Shown here: piece by piece, positions 1 through 38,127 of the stretch | Layout: the number at the start of each line of letters is the position of its first letter | Position numbering within the stretch: position 1 is the first letter of the stretch | Origin: Patescibacteria group bacterium | GTDB lineage: Bacteria > Patescibacteriota > Patescibacteriia > Magasanikbacterales > GWA2-37-8 | Direction: 5' to 3' | Assembly: GCA_004321885.1 (NCBI GenBank) | Contig: SCQK01000006.1 | Location: 1-40,129, forward strand | Length of the DNA: 40,129 nt | The notes under the pieces: generated by a model | Database searches by the model: none | Seen by the model: only the letters and a program-made list of their open reading frames with translations | What the model was told of the DNA's origin: nothing | Position numbers and translations under genes: made by a program

Positions 1-115
1 TTCTCGTGTAGTATGAACATACACGAGAATTATCCCAGAAAAAGGCGAAATAAGCTCTTACTTTAGCATAATTCACTGCCTAGCTTTCAACCGAATTAAT
101 TTAATCATCCCTAAT

Positions 116-607
116 ATGAAAGAAATTATTCTTGGCATTGACCCGGGGTTTGGGCGGGTGGGGTGGGGGGTGATTGAAAAAGAGAAAGGGGATTGGAAAT
201 GCGTGGCATACGGGTGTATAGAGACCCCGATGACTGACAAATTCGTGGATCGCCTCGCTGATTTGCATAGGCAGTTGAAATTGCTCATCAAAAAATATCA
301 TCCGACCCGCGTGGCCGTGGAGGATTTATTTTTTTTCAAAAATTTGAAGACGGCGATAAAAGTCGGGCAGGCGCGCGGGGTGATACTTCTGACCGCGGTG
401 GAAAACAAATTGCCGGTGGACGAGTTTACTCCTTTACAGGTGAAGCAGGCCATGACCGGCTATGGCCGGGCCGAGAAATGTCAGATGCAAAGATTAGTGG
501 GCATGCTCTTGGGTTTGAAAGAAAAAATAAAATCCGATGACGCGGCCGACGCGCTGGCCGTGGCCTTGTGCGCCGGACAATCCTTATGGGTAAAAAAGAT
601 TCTGTAG
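116..607 (+). CDS. ruvC: Holliday junction resolvase RuvC
   Basis: 163-aa ORF with the N-terminal ILGIDPGxxxxGWGV motif and downstream conserved acidic residues typical of RuvC (RNase H-like fold); length is typical. Confidence 0.9.
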   Translation: MKEIILGIDPGFGRVGWGVIEKEKGDWKCVAYGCIETPMTDKFVDRLADLHRQLKLLIKKYHPTRVAVEDLFFFKNLKTAIKVGQARGVILLTAVENKLPVDEFTPLQVKQAMTGYGRAEKCQMQRLVGMLLGLKEKIKSDDAADALAVALCAGQSLWVKKIL

Positions 608-1128
608 TCGCGGCTATCCCCTCCTTTATAAGGAGGGGATTGAGGGGAGGTAATTTTGTTCTTATCCTTCCGAATATCCGCAGCGGGCACAACGTGGGCG
701 CGATTTTTCGCACGGCCGACGGCGCCGGGATTTCAAAATTGTATTTGTGCGGTTACACGCCGCGCCCTCCGCATGTGCAAATTGATAAAGTTTCGTTAGG
801 CGCGGAAAAGTGGATGCCGTGGGAATATCACAGTCAAGCCGGATGCCTGCTTAAAAAATTAAGAAAAGAGGGGTATAATATAGTAGCGTTGGAGCAGACG
901 CCCGCGAGCGGTAATATTTTTCAATGGAAACCAAAATTTCCATTAGCGTTGGTGGTAGGCAACGAAAAGACCGGCGTGTCAAAGCCGCTGTTAAAATTAT
1001 GCGACAGCGCGGTAGAGATTCCGATGGCCGGCAAAAAGAGCAGTTTGAACGTCAGCGTGGCCGCCGGAGTGGCGATGTACTTCGTTAATTCCCCTCCCCT
1101 TTATAAGGGGAGGGTTAGGGAGGGGTAG
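586..1128 (+). CDS. SpoU/TrmH-family RNA 2'-O-methyltransferase
   Basis: ORF 568..1128 (GTG); the first ATG is at 586. Motifs VLILPNIRSGHNVGAIFRTADGAGISKLYL and C-terminal LNVSVAAGVAMYF are typical of SPOUT methylases. An N-proximal segment (618-650) and the last 12 codons (1091-1128) are copies of palindromic element A read in-frame, so the true start and end are uncertain. Confidence 0.75.
   Translation: MGKKDSVVAAIPSFIRRGLRGGNFVLILPNIRSGHNVGAIFRTADGAGISKLYLCGYTPRPPHVQIDKVSLGAEKWMPWEYHSQAGCLLKKLRKEGYNIVALEQTPASGNIFQWKPKFPLALVVGNEKTGVSKPLLKLCDSAVEIPMAGKKSSLNVSVAAGVAMYFVNSPPLYKGRVREG
618..650. repeat. palindromic element A, copy A1 (CCCCTCCTTTATAAGGAGGGG + GAGGGGAGG)
   Basis: Perfect inverted repeat 618-638; lies inside the 5' region of the SpoU ORF, 11 nt after the ruvC stop. 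Confidence 0.8.
1091..1128. repeat. palindromic element A, copy A2
   Basis: CCCCTCCCCTTTATAAGGGGAGGG + TTAGGGAGGGGTAG; forms the last 12 codons and stop of the SpoU ORF and the SD of the next gene. Confidence 0.8.
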
Positions 1129-1131
1129 AGT

Positions 1132-1857
1132 ATGCAATCCACTTTATTTATATATAAACATCTCTGCGCTCGCTTGCCGCCACTTTTTCCGACCGAGCAT
1201 TTGGAATCGGCGCGCGCGGAAATCGCCAGACTGGAAAGAGAAAAAAATACCGGCGTGGAGGACGTGGAAAACTCCATGATAAAGTTTGGCTACGAGGCCT
1301 GGCCGTGGAACCAAGCGTACAGGGAATTTTTGGAAAACGCCGAAGCCCAGGTGGGCGAGCATTTTTTACTGCCGCATCTTTCCGATGAGATGCGCGAAAA
1401 ATTTGAGGATTACCGCCACTATGGCATGGGCTTGCATGATTTGCATTCCGGCCGGTCGGCCGAGTATTTTACTTCGGACGAACGCGCTCTCTTGTGTGAA
1501 GCGCTCGTGGAAACACAAAAACAGTTGCGCGCGTATGTTGACCGCGATATTTGCGGTTTGAGCAAGAAAAAGTATCTGGCGCGAGTGAAGGAATTTGCCA
1601 GAATTTTGGAGCAGATAAAAGAAAAGATGGATGAACTGCGCGCGTTGGCAGATAAGGAAGAGGAGCATCCGGCGCTGGCCGGCGAGATTCGCCAGCGCGT
1701 GCGCTTGTTTGAACACGGGCTTTGTTTGCTGGGGCCGGATTTGGATTATGACGCGGTGTGCGGCTCAATTGACTTTTTTCATGGTCGGAGACAAGATTTA
1801 AGTAGGATGAGGGGGATAAATATTCCGAAACAGATAGATTTTTACAACCAGGTATGA
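1132..1857 (+). CDS. hypothetical protein
   Basis: 241-aa ORF; strong SD supplied by element A (GGGAGGGGTAGAGT ATG); 4-nt overlap (ATGA) with the downstream DJ-1 gene; no recognisable motif. Confidence 0.6.
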   Translation: MQSTLFIYKHLCARLPPLFPTEHLESARAEIARLEREKNTGVEDVENSMIKFGYEAWPWNQAYREFLENAEAQVGEHFLLPHLSDEMREKFEDYRHYGMGLHDLHSGRSAEYFTSDERALLCEALVETQKQLRAYVDRDICGLSKKKYLARVKEFARILEQIKEKMDELRALADKEEEHPALAGEIRQRVRLFEHGLCLLGPDLDYDAVCGSIDFFHGRRQDLSRMRGINIPKQIDFYNQV

Positions 1858-2372
1858 AAAAAGTTTTGTTTGTAATCGCTCACGAGGGATTTCGGCCGGA
1901 GGAATATTACGAGCCGAAGAAAATTTTGATGGCGGCCGGAGTGGAATTTGTTACCGCGAGCAATGCGGCCGGTATGGCCACGCCGAAATTCGGCGATGAA
2001 TTGGCGAAAGTGGATTTGGTTTTGGACGACGTGAAAACGGACGATTATAATGGAATATTTTTTGTGGGCGGGCCGGGGGCGTTGGAACATTTGGACAACG
2101 AAAAATCTTATCGGATTATCAAAGAAGCGGCGGAAAAGGGGAAAGTTTTCGGCGCTATTTGCATTTCACCAAGAATTTTGGCGCGCGCCGGAGTTTTGAA
2201 AAACAAAAAAGCCACCGGGTGGAACAAGGACAATGAATTGGGTAAGATTTTGGCGGATGCCGGCGCGAATTACATCAAGGAGTCAGTCGTCGTCGATGGC
2301 AAACTGGTGACGGCGAGCGGCCCGTCCGCGGCGCAAGAGTTTGGCAAAAAGATTTTGGATAAATTGTCGTAG
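1854..2372 (+). CDS. DJ-1/PfpI family protein (class I glutamine amidotransferase-like)
   Basis: 172 aa; nucleophile-elbow Cys in GAICISP and the overall pattern of the DJ-1/PfpI family. Confidence 0.85.
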   Translation: MKKVLFVIAHEGFRPEEYYEPKKILMAAGVEFVTASNAAGMATPKFGDELAKVDLVLDDVKTDDYNGIFFVGGPGALEHLDNEKSYRIIKEAAEKGKVFGAICISPRILARAGVLKNKKATGWNKDNELGKILADAGANYIKESVVVDGKLVTASGPSAAQEFGKKILDKLS

Positions 2373-2380
2373 TCTCCATT

Positions 2381-2689
2381 ATGGAAGTGCAATATTTTGA
2401 TGATCAACTCGAGGAATTCATCAAAAATTTGGAAGAATCGACTGTGGCTAAAGTCGTGAGAACAGTCGAGCTTTTGCGCCGATTTGGCCATCTGCTCGGG
2501 ATGCCTCATAGCAAAAAAGTTGGTAGTCATCTGTATGAATTACGCATACATGGAAAGCAGAAAGTCAGGATACTCTACACTTTTAAGGGTAGCGTCATTA
2601 TGCTTCTACATGGTTTTATCAAAAAATCTTCCAGAATTCCTACCAAAGAATTGCAAACTGCGCTCCAGAAGTTGGCGCGCTTGACATAA
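2381..2689 (+). CDS. higB: type II toxin, HigB/RelE-like (Gp49-like, COG4679 family)
   Basis: 102-aa ORF immediately upstream of an XRE-HTH gene; sequence pattern (..HLYELRIHG..VRILYTF.G..IMLLHGFIKKS) is typical of HigB/Gp49-like mRNA interferases. Confidence 0.75.
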   Translation: MEVQYFDDQLEEFIKNLEESTVAKVVRTVELLRRFGHLLGMPHSKKVGSHLYELRIHGKQKVRILYTFKGSVIMLLHGFIKKSSRIPTKELQTALQKLARLT

Positions 2690-2710
2690 TATAACATATA
2701 TGTTATATTA
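2681..2710 (+). promoter_or_regulatory. sigma70-like promoter (TTGACA-17-TATATT) overlapping a perfect 24-bp palindrome TAATATAACATATATGTTATATTA; putative HigA operator
   Basis: -35 at 2681-2686 (overlaps the higB stop), 17-nt spacer, -10 at 2704-2709; the palindrome 2687-2710 is centred in the spacer/-10; higA ATG at 2718 implies a leaderless or near-leaderless transcript. Confidence 0.55.
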
Positions 2711-2717
2711 GTTTTAT

Positions 2718-2990
2718 ATGAAATCTTTTACAGCGTTAAAAAAACAACTGTTGAAAAATAAAAAGGTTAAAAAGGCATACGATGAACTAGGTCCGGAATT
2801 TGCGTTGGCTAGCACACTTATTGAGAAACGAATCATACGAGGGCTGACCCAAGAGGCTTTAGCAAAAAAGGCCGGCACCAAACAATCCGCGATTGCCCGT
2901 TTAGAATCGGGAACTTATAACCCCTCATTTGCTTTTTTGAAAAAAGTTTCCAAGGCGTTGGACGCGCAGTTAATGGTGACTATTCATTAA
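2718..2990 (+). CDS. higA: HTH XRE-family antitoxin HigA
   Basis: 90 aa; C-terminal helix-turn-helix IRGLTQEALAKKAGTKQSAIARLESG; paired downstream of higB. Confidence 0.8.
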   Translation: MKSFTALKKQLLKNKKVKKAYDELGPEFALASTLIEKRIIRGLTQEALAKKAGTKQSAIARLESGTYNPSFAFLKKVSKALDAQLMVTIH

Positions 2991-3012
2991 TTCCGATTTC
3001 TCTCAAATCAAA

Positions 3013-3041
3013 ACCGCGATGATTGACATCGCGGCTTTTTT
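3013..3041 (+). terminator. rho-independent terminator
   Basis: CCGCGATG-N5-CATCGCGG stem followed by CTTTTTTG. Confidence 0.7.
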
Positions 3042-3153
3042 GTATTACTAATAGTTGTTGCTCTTTGCGCGTTCCTCAATTTTGAGGAAAACCTGGGCCC
3101 CGGGCAGGGGCAAAAGGCTTTTCGGGCGATAACAAGCTTGAAAGGAGACGACC

Positions 3154-4077
3154 ATGGGTAAGAGTTATGAGGAAGTTTGGCGTGGGCTCACCGGCGGCCA
3201 GCAGGAAGCGCTTCAGCGCAAGCTTTGGCTCGCGGCTGGCGGCCAGGATACAGGTGAGGAAGGACTCGCGACCATCTTGCGAGATGAGCAGAAAATCACG
3301 CTCGTGGACGCGATAGTGAAGCTCGCGGACAAGCGCGGCCGCTGCATCCCCATTCCGGGGATGCGGGGCAGGGTCGTGGACGCCAATCGCAATTTCCGGC
3401 TTGGCCATCTCGAGATCAGCACCGTGGGCATCCTCTACAATCTTCGGCAATTTTTCGCGCCGGAGATGAAGTTTCCTTCGGAAGCGGAGTTTGCGCGGCG
3501 TGTTGCCGATCTGATCGCGCTGGCGGAGAAGGATAAGCAGACGAAGAACCTGCTCAAGGGGGCGTACTGGCCTTTGTGCTTTCCGCAACTCGCGGTTGTG
3601 GACTATGGCCGTTCGCTGGAGGAGATTTTCCTGCCGGCGGTCAAGCGTTCGTACGAGGCCGCGTTCCCCGGTCGGAATTTCAAGAACTACCGCGCGGATG
3701 AGCTGGTCGAACAGGTGACCGTCGCCGCGGGCACTCGTCACGAGATGCTCCTCGCAAAGATGGCCGAGGGTCCGGTCGTCGGCCTTTGGTTCGCCAATCC
3801 GCTCCAGGGTTTTGGCATCCATGCCGACCGCGAGCAAATCGCTGCGTTCCCCGAGAGTTTCATACTCTCTGGCGCGATTGACACCGCGACCGCGATGGTG
3901 GCTGACCCGCAGACGCTCTGTCGGAGCTACAAGACCCCCAGCTACGTCTGTGCTGCCAACGTTTGGTATCACAACAGCTCGCCGTACTTCCGGGCCGATG
4001 ACGACAAGCTCTACTTCAGCGTGGGTGTCATCGACGCCAGCGACTTCAGCTCCGGTGGTTTGCTCTTTCTCGGGTAG
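3154..4077 (+). CDS. hypothetical protein (compositionally GC-rich, probably horizontally acquired)
   Basis: 307-aa ORF with protein-like composition, preceded by AAAGGAGA SD. The opposite-strand ORF 3076..3972 is Arg-rich junk typical of the antisense of GC-rich coding DNA. The segment is visibly GC-richer than its flanks. Confidence 0.55.
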   Translation: MGKSYEEVWRGLTGGQQEALQRKLWLAAGGQDTGEEGLATILRDEQKITLVDAIVKLADKRGRCIPIPGMRGRVVDANRNFRLGHLEISTVGILYNLRQFFAPEMKFPSEAEFARRVADLIALAEKDKQTKNLLKGAYWPLCFPQLAVVDYGRSLEEIFLPAVKRSYEAAFPGRNFKNYRADELVEQVTVAAGTRHEMLLAKMAEGPVVGLWFANPLQGFGIHADREQIAAFPESFILSGAIDTATAMVADPQTLCRSYKTPSYVCAANVWYHNSSPYFRADDDKLYFSVGVIDASDFSSGGLLFLG

Positions 4078-4173
4078 TCCAGTTTAGTTGTTCCTTCCTC
4101 TTTCCCGTTCGTTCGCGAACGGGATCCCACTTGAGTTTTTATAATGATGAAGATTCAAGTGGGATGAAAAACT

Positions 4174-4205
4174 CCACCCTTTATTCCTCCCCTATAAGGG
4201 GAGGG
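4174..4205. repeat. palindromic element A, copy A3
   Basis: CCTCCCCTATAAGGGGAGG core (4186-4204), 15 nt from element B1. Confidence 0.75.
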
Positions 4206-4212
4206 ATTTGGT

Positions 4213-5232
4213 TTAAGCAAGGGATTGCTTCGTCGCTTCGCTCCTCGCAATGACAGTAGAAGGTTTAATGGTTGAGAATTTGGCCAGCATTTTTTTGATA
4301 CCATTTTTATCCAAGATTCCTTTGAGCGAGCCGACTTCGGAAATCACTCCGCAACTATTAGCGATGCCCCAGCTTAGGGCGAGCGGGATCTCGTGTCCGT
4401 AAAAGCGAGCCGATAGATACCCGGCCGAAAAAGCGTCGCCGGCGCCGGTTTTGGCCACCACTTTTACCGGAAAACTTTCCAAGCGCCAGACCTCATCCAC
4501 GTTGCCGGCCCAGGCCCCGTTGGCCGCGTCGGTTATTACCACTTCCTTGGCGCCATCATTTAGCAGTTTACGTATCAAACCGGCGACTGATTTGGCTTTG
4601 GCCAACGTCAGGTCGCTGATTTTTTCCGCCTCTTCCAGATTCACTATTAAAACATCGGTTCGTTTCAACATCTCGCGTACTTTTGGCAAGGCGTTTTTAA
4701 TTTGGAAACTGCCCGGATTAAAAGCTAAGCGCGCTGTGCCGTGTTTGTCCAAAAAAGCCAATAATTTTTCTTGCAAATTTTCAAACCCTTCGCTCAAGCT
4801 GGTGTAATAAATCCAGTCAACCGGCGGCACGGTTCGCGGCCAGTCGTATTTTCGTTTTTGATGGTAAGATAAAATAGTGCGTTCGCCCTTGAAATTCAAA
4901 ATAATGGAATAGCGGGTAAGAGTCCTGGGGTCTTGGCTGGTCAAACTTGTGTCCACGTTGTTTTTTTTCAGCTCTTCCAAGATCAGCTTGCCGTTGGCGT
5001 CGGTGCCTAGCGAAGTAATGGCCGCGCATTTGAGCCCCAGCTTGGTAGCGCCCACAGCCACATTAGCCGCGTTGCCTCCGAGTGATTGAAAGCTGCCGGT
5101 AATGGGCACCTTACTGGCGTAGTCCAAACATAACTGACAATTTTCGTGATTAACATCGCATTGGACCGTTGCGTCATCTATAAAAACATGAGTGTCAATC
5201 ACCGCGTCGCCGATGGTAATGAGGTTGTACAT
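4213..5232 (-). CDS. PfkB-family carbohydrate kinase (ribokinase-like)
   Basis: 339 aa; N-terminal GxxxxD and C-terminal TGAGDAFSAGYL PfkB signatures; SD GGGAGGGG (part of element A4) 7 nt upstream of the ATG; the last ~13 codons (VIARSEATKQSLA) are encoded by palindromic element B1, so the native C-terminus is probably shorter. Confidence 0.8.
   Translation of the reverse strand: MYNLITIGDAVIDTHVFIDDATVQCDVNHENCQLCLDYASKVPITGSFQSLGGNAANVAVGATKLGLKCAAITSLGTDANGKLILEELKKNNVDTSLTSQDPRTLTRYSIILNFKGERTILSYHQKRKYDWPRTVPPVDWIYYTSLSEGFENLQEKLLAFLDKHGTARLAFNPGSFQIKNALPKVREMLKRTDVLIVNLEEAEKISDLTLAKAKSVAGLIRKLLNDGAKEVVITDAANGAWAGNVDEVWRLESFPVKVVAKTGAGDAFSAGYLSARFYGHEIPLALSWGIANSCGVISEVGSLKGILDKNGIKKMLAKFSTIKPSTVIARSEATKQSLA
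4221..4256. repeat. palindromic element B, copy B1 (one arm)
   Basis: GGGATTGCTTCGTCGCTTCGCTCCTCGCAATGACAG; forms the C-terminal codons of the PfkB kinase ORF. Confidence 0.75.
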
Positions 5233-5239
5233 ATATTTA

Positions 5240-5297
5240 CCCCTCCCTCGCCCTCCTCCCGAAACAAGTTCGGGACAAGCTCTTGTAAAGGGGAGGG
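5240..5297. repeat. palindromic element A, copy A4 (with an internal 25-nt insertion forming its own hairpins)
   Basis: CCCCTCCCTCGCCCTCCTCCC-GAAACAAGTTCGGGACAAGCTCTTG-TAAAGGGGAGGG; supplies the SD for the PfkB kinase (minus strand). Confidence 0.7.
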
Positions 5298-9135: not shown

Positions 9136-9164
9136 TTGACAAAAAGCGTCAAAAATCATATAAT
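9136..9164 (+). promoter_or_regulatory. consensus sigma70 promoter for ileS
   Basis: TTGACA (9136-9141), 17-nt spacer, TATAAT (9159-9164). Confidence 0.6.
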
Positions 9165-9175
9165 TCTATCAATTA

Positions 9176-9208
9176 CCCCTCCTTAATCCTCCCCTTATTA
9201 AGGGGAGG
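9176..9208. repeat. palindromic element A, copy A6 (SD of ileS)
   Basis: CCCCTCCTTAATCCTCCCCTTATTAAGGGGAGG; GGAGG lies 6 nt before the ileS ATG. Confidence 0.8.
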
Positions 9209-16614: not shown

Positions 16615-16643
16615 AATATAGCATATTTGGAAGTTTTTGTCAA
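16615..16643 (-). promoter_or_regulatory. putative sigma70 promoter (minus strand) for the 15795-16442 gene
   Basis: On the minus strand: TTGACA (rc of 16638-16643), 17-nt spacer, TATATT (rc of 16615-16620). Confidence 0.4.
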
Positions 16644-19414: not shown

Positions 19415-21259
19415 ATGTTGAAATTAAAAATTTTCTTCCTGCCGTTTTTGGCCATAATATTTTTTGGCGGCGCGGGCGCTGCGCGGGCTTTGGATTTTAC
19501 GCCGCCGCCTTTTCGCGACCCCTCGTATGGCGCTAAATACGTTGGCCAGTCCGCGGCCGACCCCATAGCAATGAACGCGGGCGAGAGCAAGACAGTGACA
19601 GTTAAATTCAAAAATACGGGCCAGACGGCCTGGCCGGCCTCGGGGAAAAATTATGTTTCCGTTTACACGATTGCTCCGAATTACCGGCCCAGCCTGTTCA
19701 CGGGGCAAGGCTGGCCGGCGGAAAGTCAGGCCGCGAAAGTTACGGCCGCGGTTTCATCCGGCAAAATCGGAGAATTCAAAATCAAATTAACCGCGCCCAA
19801 AACAGCGGGCGAATACATCGAACGTTTTAATTTAGCCGCCGAAAACAAAACTTGGATAAAAGGCGGTTACTTTTACCTTAAGGTAAAAGTAACCGCGAAC
19901 GCGCGCGCGAGCGGCAACTCGGCTCGGGTGGATGACGAAGCCGCACAAATTAACAAAGAATACCGGGCGCATTTACTTACGTTTTCCGCGCGGAGCGTGC
20001 AGGCCAAGGGCGGCGAGCCCATTTTTTTTAAGGTGCGTTATATCAACGACGGCACAGCCGCCTGGAAAAATTATTTATGGCAGGAGGCAGGTTCGAGCGC
20101 CGGCAAAATAGCCGTAGCATCCGCGGCCGGCGGCAGAGTTGCCATAGCCGATACGAGCTGGCTGTCTGCCGCCAAAATTAAAACCGAAGAAAAAACTGTC
20201 GCCCCGAACGAGCCGCTTGATATTGAATATAGTTTTAGAGCGCCGGTAAAAATCGGTGAATACGCGGCCCGATTCCAGCTGACGGCCAACAATCACACCT
20301 TGGACGGGGGGACTTTGGAATTGCCCGTAACAGTCACGGCCGACGCGCCGGTTGACTACCAGGAGCCGGTGTTTACGAGTACCCGCCGGCTTATCAGCGA
20401 GCCCAATATTCGCGTGGGCCTGTATAAAGCGGATAAAGAAGTGAAATTTTTATCGGATTTTCCTTATCAGGTTTACAGCGGCGAGGTTTTAATGGGCACG
20501 CTTTTCGCCCAGGCGCCGGCCACGCTTTCTTATGCCGGCGGCGCATACACATTCGCCAGCGCTGATTTGAATTTCAGCGCCAGCCAGCCCGTTCGCTTTG
20601 TGCCCGATGACATAAAATACTATTTTACTTTGGTAAATTACGACCGTCGCGCGGCCTGGAAGGGCAATAAAAATTTCAACGTGTATCGCGGGGCCATGGA
20701 ATTCAAGTATTCCCCCAAAAGCGACGCGCCGTTTGTGATAAACGAATTGCCCTTGGATTTGTACGTGGCCGGCATTGCCGAAACCTCCAATGGCGCGGCC
20801 ATGGAATACATCAAGGCCCTGCTGGTTGCCGCGCGCACCTATGCCTATTATCAAATCAACAATGGCGTGCCGGCGGATAAGCGCACTTACGACGTGGTGG
20901 CCACCACCGCCGACCAGCTTTATTTGGGGTACAATTCCGAGGCGTTGATGCCGCGCGTGGTGCAGGCGGCTCAGGCCACTTACGGCGAGATGGTCACCTA
21001 CAACGCCGCGCCGGTGATTACGCCGTATTTTGGCCATAGCGACGGCCGCACCCGCGCCTGGACAGAAGTGTGGGGCGGCAGCGCCAAGCCATGGCTGGTC
21101 GGCGTGGAAGCGAAATATGACGCCGGGCAAAAAATGTGGGGGCATGGCGTGGGCATGAGCGCCCAAGACGCCTCTCAACGCGCCGACAAAGACGGCTGGA
21201 CCTACGACCAGATTTTGCAATATTATTACACCGGCACGGAAACGGAAAAAATTTATTGA
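19415..21259 (+). CDS. SpoIID/LytB-domain protein with N-terminal signal peptide and tandem Ig-like repeats
   Basis: 614 aa; C-terminal ALLVAARTYAYYQ ... YDVVATTADQLYLGYNSE ... PVITPYFGHSDGRTRAW is the SpoIID/LytB amidase-enhancer domain; the N-terminal ~330 aa contain 3-4 repeats of a ~100-aa module (GESKTVTVKFKNTGQTAW..., GEPIFFKVRYINDGTAAW..., IGEYAARFQLTANNHT). Confidence 0.8.
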   Translation: MLKLKIFFLPFLAIIFFGGAGAARALDFTPPPFRDPSYGAKYVGQSAADPIAMNAGESKTVTVKFKNTGQTAWPASGKNYVSVYTIAPNYRPSLFTGQGWPAESQAAKVTAAVSSGKIGEFKIKLTAPKTAGEYIERFNLAAENKTWIKGGYFYLKVKVTANARASGNSARVDDEAAQINKEYRAHLLTFSARSVQAKGGEPIFFKVRYINDGTAAWKNYLWQEAGSSAGKIAVASAAGGRVAIADTSWLSAAKIKTEEKTVAPNEPLDIEYSFRAPVKIGEYAARFQLTANNHTLDGGTLELPVTVTADAPVDYQEPVFTSTRRLISEPNIRVGLYKADKEVKFLSDFPYQVYSGEVLMGTLFAQAPATLSYAGGAYTFASADLNFSASQPVRFVPDDIKYYFTLVNYDRRAAWKGNKNFNVYRGAMEFKYSPKSDAPFVINELPLDLYVAGIAETSNGAAMEYIKALLVAARTYAYYQINNGVPADKRTYDVVATTADQLYLGYNSEALMPRVVQAAQATYGEMVTYNAAPVITPYFGHSDGRTRAWTEVWGGSAKPWLVGVEAKYDAGQKMWGHGVGMSAQDASQRADKDGWTYDQILQYYYTGTETEKIY

Positions 21260-25425: not shown

Positions 25426-25460
25426 CTCTCCCCTTGATAAGGGGAGAGCGAGAGAGGGGT
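25426..25460. repeat. palindromic element A, copy A7 (upstream of ruvB)
   Basis: CTCTCCCCTTGATAAGGGGAGAG + CGAGAGAGGGGT. Confidence 0.7.
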
Positions 25461-25487
25461 AAAAACTACTATCATTATATCCCATAC

Positions 25488-31837: not shown

Positions 31838-31850
31838 TGTTAGCGCATAT

Positions 31851-31884
31851 ACCCCTCCCTCGCCCTCCCCTTATAAAGGGGAGG
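31851..31884. repeat. palindromic element A, copy A8 (upstream of the pilin cluster)
   Basis: CCCCTCCCTCGCCCTCCCCTTATAAAGGGGAGGG. Confidence 0.8.
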
Positions 31885-31898
31885 GATAAACCCATTTC

Positions 31899-38086: not shown

Positions 38087-38121
38087 TCCCTCCCCTATTA
38101 GGGGAGGGGCAAGGGGAGGGG
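38087..38121. repeat. palindromic element A, copy A9 (SD of TrbC-like paralog 1)
   Basis: CCCTCCCCTATTAGGGGAGGG + GCAAGGGGAGGGG, 7 nt before the ATG at 38128. Confidence 0.8.
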
Positions 38122-38127
38122 TATTTT

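Follow-up and report, generated by a model that had tools for sequence, protein, structure and literature searches.

In toxin-antitoxin modules of the reverse order the antitoxin has to be made in excess although the toxin gene leads, and the question raised by the locus described here is where, in such a module, the control of antitoxin synthesis resides. The module occupies positions 2381-2990 of contig SCQK01000006.1 (assembly GCA_004321885.1) from a Patescibacteria group bacterium, which was analyzed as a single stretch of 40,129 nucleotides (nt), hereafter the window. Both of its genes lie on the + strand, the toxin gene higB first and the antitoxin gene higA second. As judged from the profile matches of both products, it is a reverse-order type II toxin-antitoxin module, composed of a Gp49/HigB2-like toxin of the RelE superfamily and a HigA antitoxin with an XRE-type helix-turn-helix (HTH) domain. 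Our analysis indicates that its sole HigA operator probably lies within a near-consensus sigma-70-type promoter at the junction of the two genes, an arrangement that would generate a self-regulated transcript for the antitoxin only.

The junction promoter ranked first in a promoter scan of positions 1-4300, with 11 of 12 matches and a TG present. Its -35 hexamer, TTGACA (2681-2686, + strand), is formed by the last two codons of higB (Leu-Thr, TTG ACA), and a spacer of 17 nt separates it from the TATATT hexamer (2704-2709) of an extended -10 element, TGtTATATT (2701-2709, + strand; TG at 2701-2702). A perfect 24-bp palindrome, TAATATAACATATATGTTATATTA (2687-2710, without strand; 12 + 12 nt, 100% complementary, no loop), starts with the higB stop codon (TAA, 2687-2689) and extends through the whole promoter spacer into the -10, the hexamer of which coincides with its right arm. 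We regard this palindrome as the putative HigA operator. An earlier sequence-only reading had described a TTGACA-17-TATATT promoter overlapping the end of higB, with a perfect 24-bp palindrome occupying its spacer and -10 and stopping 7 nt short of the higA ATG; the promoter was indeed found at 2681-2709, spanning the stop codon, and the description of the palindrome proved exact. The palindrome core common to relatives comprises 18 bp (2690-2707, TATAAC-ATATAT-GTTATA), and the outer 3 + 3 bp are particular to some loci. When a second copy of the palindrome was sought across the 40-kb window none was found, the junction being the sole match. A minus-strand promoter using the symmetric -10 was considered as well and discarded, as it had no acceptable -35.

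Chance does not account for the combination of palindrome and promoter at the junction. When 5000 sequences of 610 nt were simulated at the base composition of the module, perfect palindromes with arms of 12 nt or longer were absent from all of them, and a promoter with at least 11 of 12 matches appeared in 2%; in simulations of the whole window the palindrome arm reached at most 11 nt.

To place the junction in a wider frame, species-representative genomes were scanned with a HigA profile, which gave 582 confirmed matches, and the best 80 of these 582 loci were read. Almost all of them come from genomes of Patescibacteria, also known as the candidate phyla radiation (CPR), and they include Uhrbacteria, Magasanikbacteria, Peregrinibacteria, Saccharibacteria, Gracilibacteria, Paceibacterota, Microgenomates lineages and others. 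A palindrome was scored when it matched TATAAC-N6-GTTATA at no fewer than 10 of 12 positions within 130 nt upstream of higA. Seventy-nine loci were testable, with HigA homologues of 51-71% identity, and in 69 of them such a palindrome was found directly 5' of higA (40 perfect, 24 with one mismatch); random 120-nt windows drawn from these loci, real sites among them, reached the same score in about 3.5% of cases. The geometry of the window is kept in 69 of the 79 loci, and in 54 of 58 the palindrome is found solely at the higB-higA junction. Anchored on the palindrome, the 69 loci yield the consensus TTGACA, 3 nt, TATAAC-ATATAY-GTTATA, nT, henceforth the cassette. A -35 with at least 5 of 6 matches is present in 52 of the 69 and a -10 of the same quality in 58, the final T of the -10 being likewise present in 58; the spacers comprise 44 of 17 nt, 12 of 16 nt and 13 of 18 nt, and in 60 loci the -10 and the higA ATG are 6-9 nt apart.

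The palindrome core carries 1.1-2.0 bits of information per position over these 69 loci, compared to 0.0-0.5 bits in the flanking coding sequence. Four of the six left-arm positions (A, T, A and C) are invariant in all 69, partly through selection, as the loci were chosen on the arm pattern. The central ATATA, on the other hand, was not part of the selection and still reaches 1.1-1.9 bits at each position. The promoter spacer is not contacted base-specifically by RNA polymerase, and yet the left arm and the centre, which lie in the spacer, are conserved like the -10, which points to a dimeric DNA-binding protein.

This pattern bears on the possibility that the junction promoter is constitutive, its palindrome being merely an AT-rich, promoter-shaped sequence without control by HigA. 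Such a promoter would have precedents, given that the internal antitoxin promoters of mqsRA and rnlAB are constitutive (PMC7167474), and part of the conservation of the right arm, which is the -10, could stem from RNA polymerase. However, the left arm and the centre are conserved as much as the -10, and no other candidate operator was found in the module. A further argument comes from four Firmicutes loci (L067, L069, L080 from Moorella mulderi and L081 from Desulfofundulus), the most distant of the set, with HigA identities of 51-55%. In all four the TATAAC-N6-GTTATA palindrome lies 5' of higB and not at the junction. In three of them (L067, L080 and L081) it begins 0-1 nt past a TTGnnn-17-TACAAT promoter (TTGCTT in L067), so that a palindrome at most 1 nt away from a separate -10, and not overlapping it, speaks against a sequence shaped by the -10 itself; with this, a constitutive junction promoter appears improbable to us.

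The Firmicutes HigA proteins carry the sequence GT(K/R/C)QSAIARLESG in the region of the recognition helix (GTKQSAIARLESG in the window), and the QSAIARLESG core is identical to that of the Patescibacteria proteins. With an identical palindrome and recognition helix but another placement, the operator occupies different positions in the two clades, and we strongly infer that the palindrome is the operator of HigA. In the same three Firmicutes loci higB and higA overlap by 4 nt, and a Shine-Dalgarno-like motif precedes higA in each of the four (GGAG in L067 and L069, AGGTGGAG in L080 and AAGG in L081). The junction placement is most simply read as a derived state of the Patescibacteria clade. 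A natural comparison of two layouts is thereby available, since the Firmicutes have the same operator and helix in another position.

Two plasmid relatives of still greater distance, from pLiSL16 of Leptospira weilii (L082) and from Vibrio parahaemolyticus (L083), also differ from the window in that promoter and palindrome precede the toxin gene, and their toxin and antitoxin genes lie 2 nt apart or overlap. In L082 (455-499) a TTGACA-17-TATATT promoter holds an imperfect palindrome (TATACCATATTTGATATA) in its spacer and -10, 6 nt from the GTG of the toxin gene. This locus therefore resembles the window in its leaderless promoter-operator design, and differs from it in that the design stands before the toxin.

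The position of the Firmicutes element, at the promoter 5' of the operon, is also difficult to reconcile with a function of the palindrome as an RNA hairpin in a bicistronic transcript, whether as processing site, stabilizer, attenuator or block to translational coupling. The 24-nt palindrome can form a 10-bp hairpin ending 7 nt before the AUG; however, the fold of positions 2670-2735 (-9.5 kcal/mol) was unremarkable (z = -0.27), an equal or better fold being reached by 70 of 200 shuffles, and the arms are conserved in sequence, with no compensatory changes that would indicate covariation. Moreover, no T-run follows, and a hairpin would leave the conserved -35 at its fixed distance unexplained. 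As shuffled sequences fold equally well and covariation is absent, we reject this role, to which we give very little probability.

The most serious rival to a self-regulated junction promoter is that this promoter is weak or inactive, in which case HigA would be translated mainly from a bicistronic read-through mRNA of higBA, the palindrome acting at a different level or persisting as a relic. It finds support in higBA2 of Acinetobacter baumannii, in which the predicted internal higA promoter had no activity (PMC5906591), and in the many genes of the window that lack a Shine-Dalgarno motif, so that starting internally without this motif may be usual here. Against it stands the conservation of -35, spacer, -10 and distance to the ATG in about 60 loci, whatever the reading frame. 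With respect to higB, the -35 falls in the three frames in 28, 14 and 4 loci, over the stop codon in 12 and past it in 5, with 6 loci having no higB; its reading is xTT GAC in the majority of relatives, in contrast to the TTG ACA (Leu-Thr) of the window. As the -35 is found in all three frames, over the stop or beyond it, the constraint acts on the DNA and not on the C-terminus of HigB.

Loci that have lost the toxin gene bear on the same point. The cassette and higA are present without higB in six loci (L018, L033, L041, L055, L057 and L066), and with a truncated higB, of which a C-terminal remnant is all that is left, in four (L015, L026, L076 and L079), so the cassette can stand alone. The orphan higA copies have unrelated sequence upstream of the cassette. 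Retention of the cassette without higB is expected if higA relies on its own promoter, and unexpected if it relies on transcription through higB. In addition, many loci have their higB behind a terminator or tRNA gene, or in a varied context. In view of all this an inactive internal promoter seems unlikely to us. The toxin-free loci also suggest that the toxin is frequently lost while the self-regulated HTH protein would be kept.

The same orphan cassettes could be taken as a sign that the palindrome is a recombination or mobile-element site which joins separately mobile toxin and antitoxin cassettes, and two other observations point the same way: the module is a low-GC (guanine plus cytosine) island (0.36-0.41 compared to about 0.5), and elements resembling miniature inverted-repeat transposable elements (MITEs) are inserted in the cassette in three loci. 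On the other hand, the orientation of the palindrome and its distance to the higA ATG and to the -35 are always the same, the half-sites and the distance between them suit a dimer of HTH proteins, no recombinase gene accompanies the palindrome, and it is the outer flanks that vary while the junction stays constant. We attach almost no probability to such a site.

The MITE-like inserts themselves measure 60-125 bp and have the terminal inverted repeats CCCCGTTAGAA...TTCTAACGGGG (L047 1650-1707, L028 2385-2454, L023 2377-2499 and L010 1887-1946). In L047 and L028 the insert lies at the -35, flanked by a duplicated TTGAC, by which a -35 next to the operator is regenerated, whereas in L023 it follows the cassette and precedes the higA ATG, is bordered by a duplicated TATG and parts higA from its promoter. 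Carriage of the cassette by phages was also considered. A scan of viral contigs with the exact cassette pattern gave 0 matches, and phage and plasmid proteins gave distant matches confined to the HTH region, with identities of no more than 55%, for which phage carriage was discarded.

With regard to the translation start, the higA ATG (2718) lies 7 nt past the palindrome and 8 nt past the -10 and is preceded by no Shine-Dalgarno motif, and an in-frame TAG (2709-2711) makes any earlier start of higA impossible. Standard geometry from the -10 to +1 predicts a transcription start at 2716-2718 (+ strand), with A2716 located 7 nt past the -10, and consequently a leader of 0-3 nt. In 55 of the 69 loci the codon aligned to Met1 of HigA is ATG; for the others the start was placed at an ATG no more than 18 nt away, by a start calling that favoured ATG. 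A Shine-Dalgarno-like motif was found 5' of higA in only one of 56 loci. In the window, on the other hand, 12 of 36 long open reading frames (ORFs) have a Shine-Dalgarno motif, and because its absence is this common, it is the conserved gap between -10 and ATG that carries the leaderless argument. The higA mRNA is apparently leaderless or nearly so. Both of the functional proposals that the sequence-only reading had drawn from the junction gain support from these comparisons: a near-leaderless higA mRNA from the gap of 6-9 nt in 60 of 69 loci and from the rarity of the Shine-Dalgarno-like motif, and a HigA autoregulation independent of the toxin, as a candidate mechanism, from the Firmicutes palindrome with its identical helix, the frame-independent cassette and the orphan loci.

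As a separate observation on translation signals, the motif GGGAGGGGTA occurs 10 times in the window with at most one mismatch, compared to 1.65 times expected, at sites 1089-1127, 5238-5247, 9174-9183, 25452-25461, 31850-31888 and 38102-38123. Several copies lie 4-11 nt 5' of starts, at 1132, 5232 (minus strand), 31899 and 38128, and some are doubled or arranged as inverted pairs. The motif has the appearance of an extended Shine-Dalgarno-like box that serves a subset of genes.

If the antitoxin is provided for at the junction, the expression of the toxin gene has to be explained from elsewhere. In the window, higB (ATG at 2381) begins 8 nt after the stop codon (TAG, 2370-2372) of a DJ-1/PfpI gene, which is the last of a tight + strand string encoding RuvC, a SpoU methylase, a protein of unknown function and DJ-1. 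The 110 nt upstream of higB contain no palindrome and no sigma-70-like site, and no Shine-Dalgarno motif stands directly upstream; a TAGTCT is present only 5 nt before the ATG, without a -35 and without a TG. The claim that higB follows DJ-1 by 8 nt with neither ribosome-binding site nor promoter of its own therefore holds in its coordinates, and no convincing site was found directly upstream. With no operator or promoter directly 5' of higB, the read-through from the housekeeping operon that the sequence-only reading had stated, here from the DJ-1 string and possibly with termination-reinitiation over the 8-nt gap, is a plausible route to HigB.

Among the Patescibacteria relatives, an operator 5' of higB was sought in 56 loci and none was found, with a weak match of 10 of 12 positions in two of them. 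A same-strand gene ends at most 30 nt before higB in 12 of 55 loci, and in other relatives higB follows terminators, tRNA genes or divergent genes. A -10, often extended by TG, lies 6-9 nt before the higB ATG in 21 of the 56 loci (for example in L010, L046, L062, L065, L070 and L077), and a TAnnnT ends precisely 6 nt before this ATG in 11, compared to about two per position elsewhere. This suggests that higB itself would be leaderless in about a third of the relatives, and that in many Patescibacteria higB and higA alike may lack a leader.

Taken together, the proposed mechanism would operate as follows. RNA polymerase would initiate about 7 nt past the junction -10, at the higA AUG or 1-3 nt before it, producing an mRNA for the antitoxin only. 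A HigA dimer, alone or bound to HigB, would occupy TATAAC-N6-GTTATA, and because this site spans the spacer and the -10, its binding would occlude the promoter and exert a negative feedback on antitoxin synthesis. Transcription of higB would come from whatever lies upstream, in the window probably by read-through of the RuvC-SpoU-unknown-DJ-1 string, without transcriptional control by HigA. As higA would lack a Shine-Dalgarno motif on the read-through transcript, most HigA would probably derive from the internal promoter.

A possible extension of this mechanism concerns the higB stop codon, which in 41 of 63 related loci falls within the 18-bp operator and in 7 more, including the window, directly precedes it. 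Operator-bound HigA might block incoming RNA polymerase, so that the higB mRNA would end without a stop codon and HigB would be tagged through trans-translation for degradation. If this were true, the antitoxin would limit the toxin co-transcriptionally without any upstream operator, and the toxin would be made efficiently only at low occupancy by HigA. We consider this roadblock a long shot, and compact common ancestry accounts for the position of the stop codon equally well.

Several points weigh against a self-regulated junction promoter as the source of HigA. The inactivity of the predicted internal promoter of A. baumannii higBA2 means that prediction alone can fail. Weak + strand promoter-like sites are present inside the DJ-1 gene (2023-2051 and 2092-2119). 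In 9 of the 69 loci the distance from the -10 to the called higA start is 11-45 nt, with an apparent value of -5 in one of them. As 24 of the 36 long ORFs in the window have no Shine-Dalgarno motif, the lack of one before higA says little alone. Several source genomes bear doubtful taxonomic labels, so that the qualification "Patescibacteria-wide" rests on record titles. Finally, we know of no characterization of sigma-factor specificity or of leaderless translation in Patescibacteria. Concerning the former, six promoters with at least 11 of 12 matches were found in the window, all with 17-nt spacers, compared to 0.4 expected, from which it follows that canonical sigma-70-type promoters are apparently used in this genome. 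The five of them other than the junction promoter, near-consensus sites of the TTGACA-17-TATAAT type and candidate strong promoters, are located at 9136, 14106, 25488 and 26396 on the + strand and at 16643 on the minus strand.

The products of the module were assigned by profile and structure matches. The toxin gene (higB, 2381-2689, + strand) encodes a 102-amino-acid (aa) Gp49-like protein of HigB2 type within the RelE/ParE superfamily (Pfam PF05973, E 2.3e-20), the match covering the family at full length (profile positions 1-89 of 90). Its nearest solved structure is HigB of Streptococcus pneumoniae (6AF3_A, E 4.7e-6 with a single-sequence query), and the match to TIGR02683 was weak, under the cutoff of that model. 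The label HigB/HigA of the sequence-only reading is consequently right for the Gp49/HigB2-like branch of the RelE/ParE toxins and wrong for the Proteus HigB family. In the alignment, and in the alignment only, HigB residues R55, F79 and K81 correspond to the key residues R68, F90 and K92 of the S. pneumoniae toxin. Residue R73 of the latter pairs with K61 in the HMMER alignment but with R63 through the common RIL motif, and R63 is probably its counterpart. The antitoxin gene (higA, 2718-2990, + strand) encodes 90 aa, with an N-terminal part of about 30 aa followed by the XRE-type HTH (Pfam HTH_3, E 4.7e-14); 621 HigA homologues were found, and the top match in the PDB, obtained with a profile of 35 homologues, was S. 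pneumoniae HigA (6AF3_B, E 6e-9). A HigB homologue lies immediately 5' of higA in 64 related loci in addition to the window, with gaps of 21-24 nt being the commonest.

Analysis of the surroundings places the DJ-1/PfpI gene (1854-2372, + strand; Pfam PF01965, E 3.9e-36) as the 5' neighbour of the module, and an intrinsic terminator-like hairpin followed by T6 (3014-3041, + strand; 8 pairs, 6 of them G-C) at its 3' end, which would terminate both the higA and the higBA transcripts. The GC content of the module is 36-41%, compared to about 50% in the flanks, which is consistent with horizontal acquisition. Directly beyond the terminator, a 307-aa ORF (3154-4077) has a GC content of 61% and a strong Shine-Dalgarno motif (GAAAGGAGA), and a Pfam search with it gave no match; with its 61% beside the 36-41% of the module and flanks of about 50%, two compositionally foreign inserts adjoin here. 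Elsewhere in the window, a perfect 34-bp palindrome with the arms GCGGTTACTTTTACCTT and AAGGTAAAAGTAACCGC is found at 19863-19896, followed by a (CG)n run. It sits within a 614-aa ORF (19415-21259) with Ig-like and SpoIID domains, which is unusual for coding sequence, and it could be an assembly artefact or a genuine hairpin-forming site.

When the literature was searched for this cassette, for toxin-antitoxin regulation in Patescibacteria/CPR or for a leaderless higA, nothing specific was found. The junction layout may represent the first set of repressor, operator and promoter defined by sequence in Patescibacteria, and it offers a case in which leaderless translation in this group could be examined; the operator set and the leaderless case would be useful for the genetic tools under development for these bacteria. 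If the layout is confirmed, autoregulation would serve antitoxin homeostasis and not toxin control, and the dosage of the toxin would be set by the host operon where the module landed.

Compared to known systems, the window departs from the canonical layout, an autoregulated promoter-operator 5' of the toxin gene that drives a bicistronic operon, in regulatory layout only. The nearest solved homologues, HigBA of S. pneumoniae (PDB 6AF3/6AF4), likewise have the toxin gene first and a HigA that binds AT-rich palindromes as an HTH dimer; in that system, however, four palindromes lie in the promoter 5' of higB, upstream of the toxin gene and not at the junction, and autoregulation is bicistronic (PMC7984235). 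In A. baumannii, the plasmid-borne higBA2, with its Xre-like HTH HigA2, is also autoregulated at the upstream promoter (PMC5906591).

Leaderless, autoregulated genes for HTH repressors are known from lambda cI, transcribed from PRM, and from PaaR2 of paaR2-paaA2-parE2 (PMC8630535). As predicted for higA, they combine an HTH repressor gene, a transcript that starts at its own AUG and a promoter bound by the repressor. They differ from higA in being divergent phage-type switches, in which PaaR2 is a third component, whereas here the antitoxin itself would be the repressor and its gene lies downstream of the toxin gene.

Reverse-order modules are otherwise provided with an autoregulated upstream promoter, with extra promoters that give antitoxin excess, constitutive in the case of mqsRA and rnlAB (PMC7167474, PMC10643148). 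At the sequence level the window shares with these two the reverse order and a promoter in the toxin ORF for the antitoxin alone (PMC7167474), but their operator is 5' of the toxin gene and their internal promoters are constitutive, while here the putative operator lies in the internal promoter and none was found upstream. In a second type, exemplified by promoter P2 of hicAB from Escherichia coli and of toxTA from Haemophilus influenzae, the antitoxin represses a promoter with antitoxin-only output and the upstream promoter is not antitoxin-repressed (PMC7167474, PMC6957337). The likeness to the window, which concerns the layout, consists of the reverse order and of an operator in a promoter that in the window would likewise yield antitoxin without toxin. 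On the other hand, P2 is placed where the toxin gene begins, and its RNA, deprived of the ribosome-binding site or start codon of the toxin, carries an untranslatable toxin ORF, whereas the window promoter lies at the 3' end of higB and its RNA is predicted to start at the antitoxin AUG; both hicAB and toxTA have a dedicated upstream promoter, none being evident in the window; and the protein families differ, with HicA/HicB in hicAB and another antitoxin branch in ToxTA, compared to Gp49 and HTH_3 (Pfam) in the window. The module is thus a new regulatory variant within a known type of system, not surprising in principle, and its predicted layout would add a third and more extreme solution to those of the mqsRA/rnlAB and hicAB/toxTA types.

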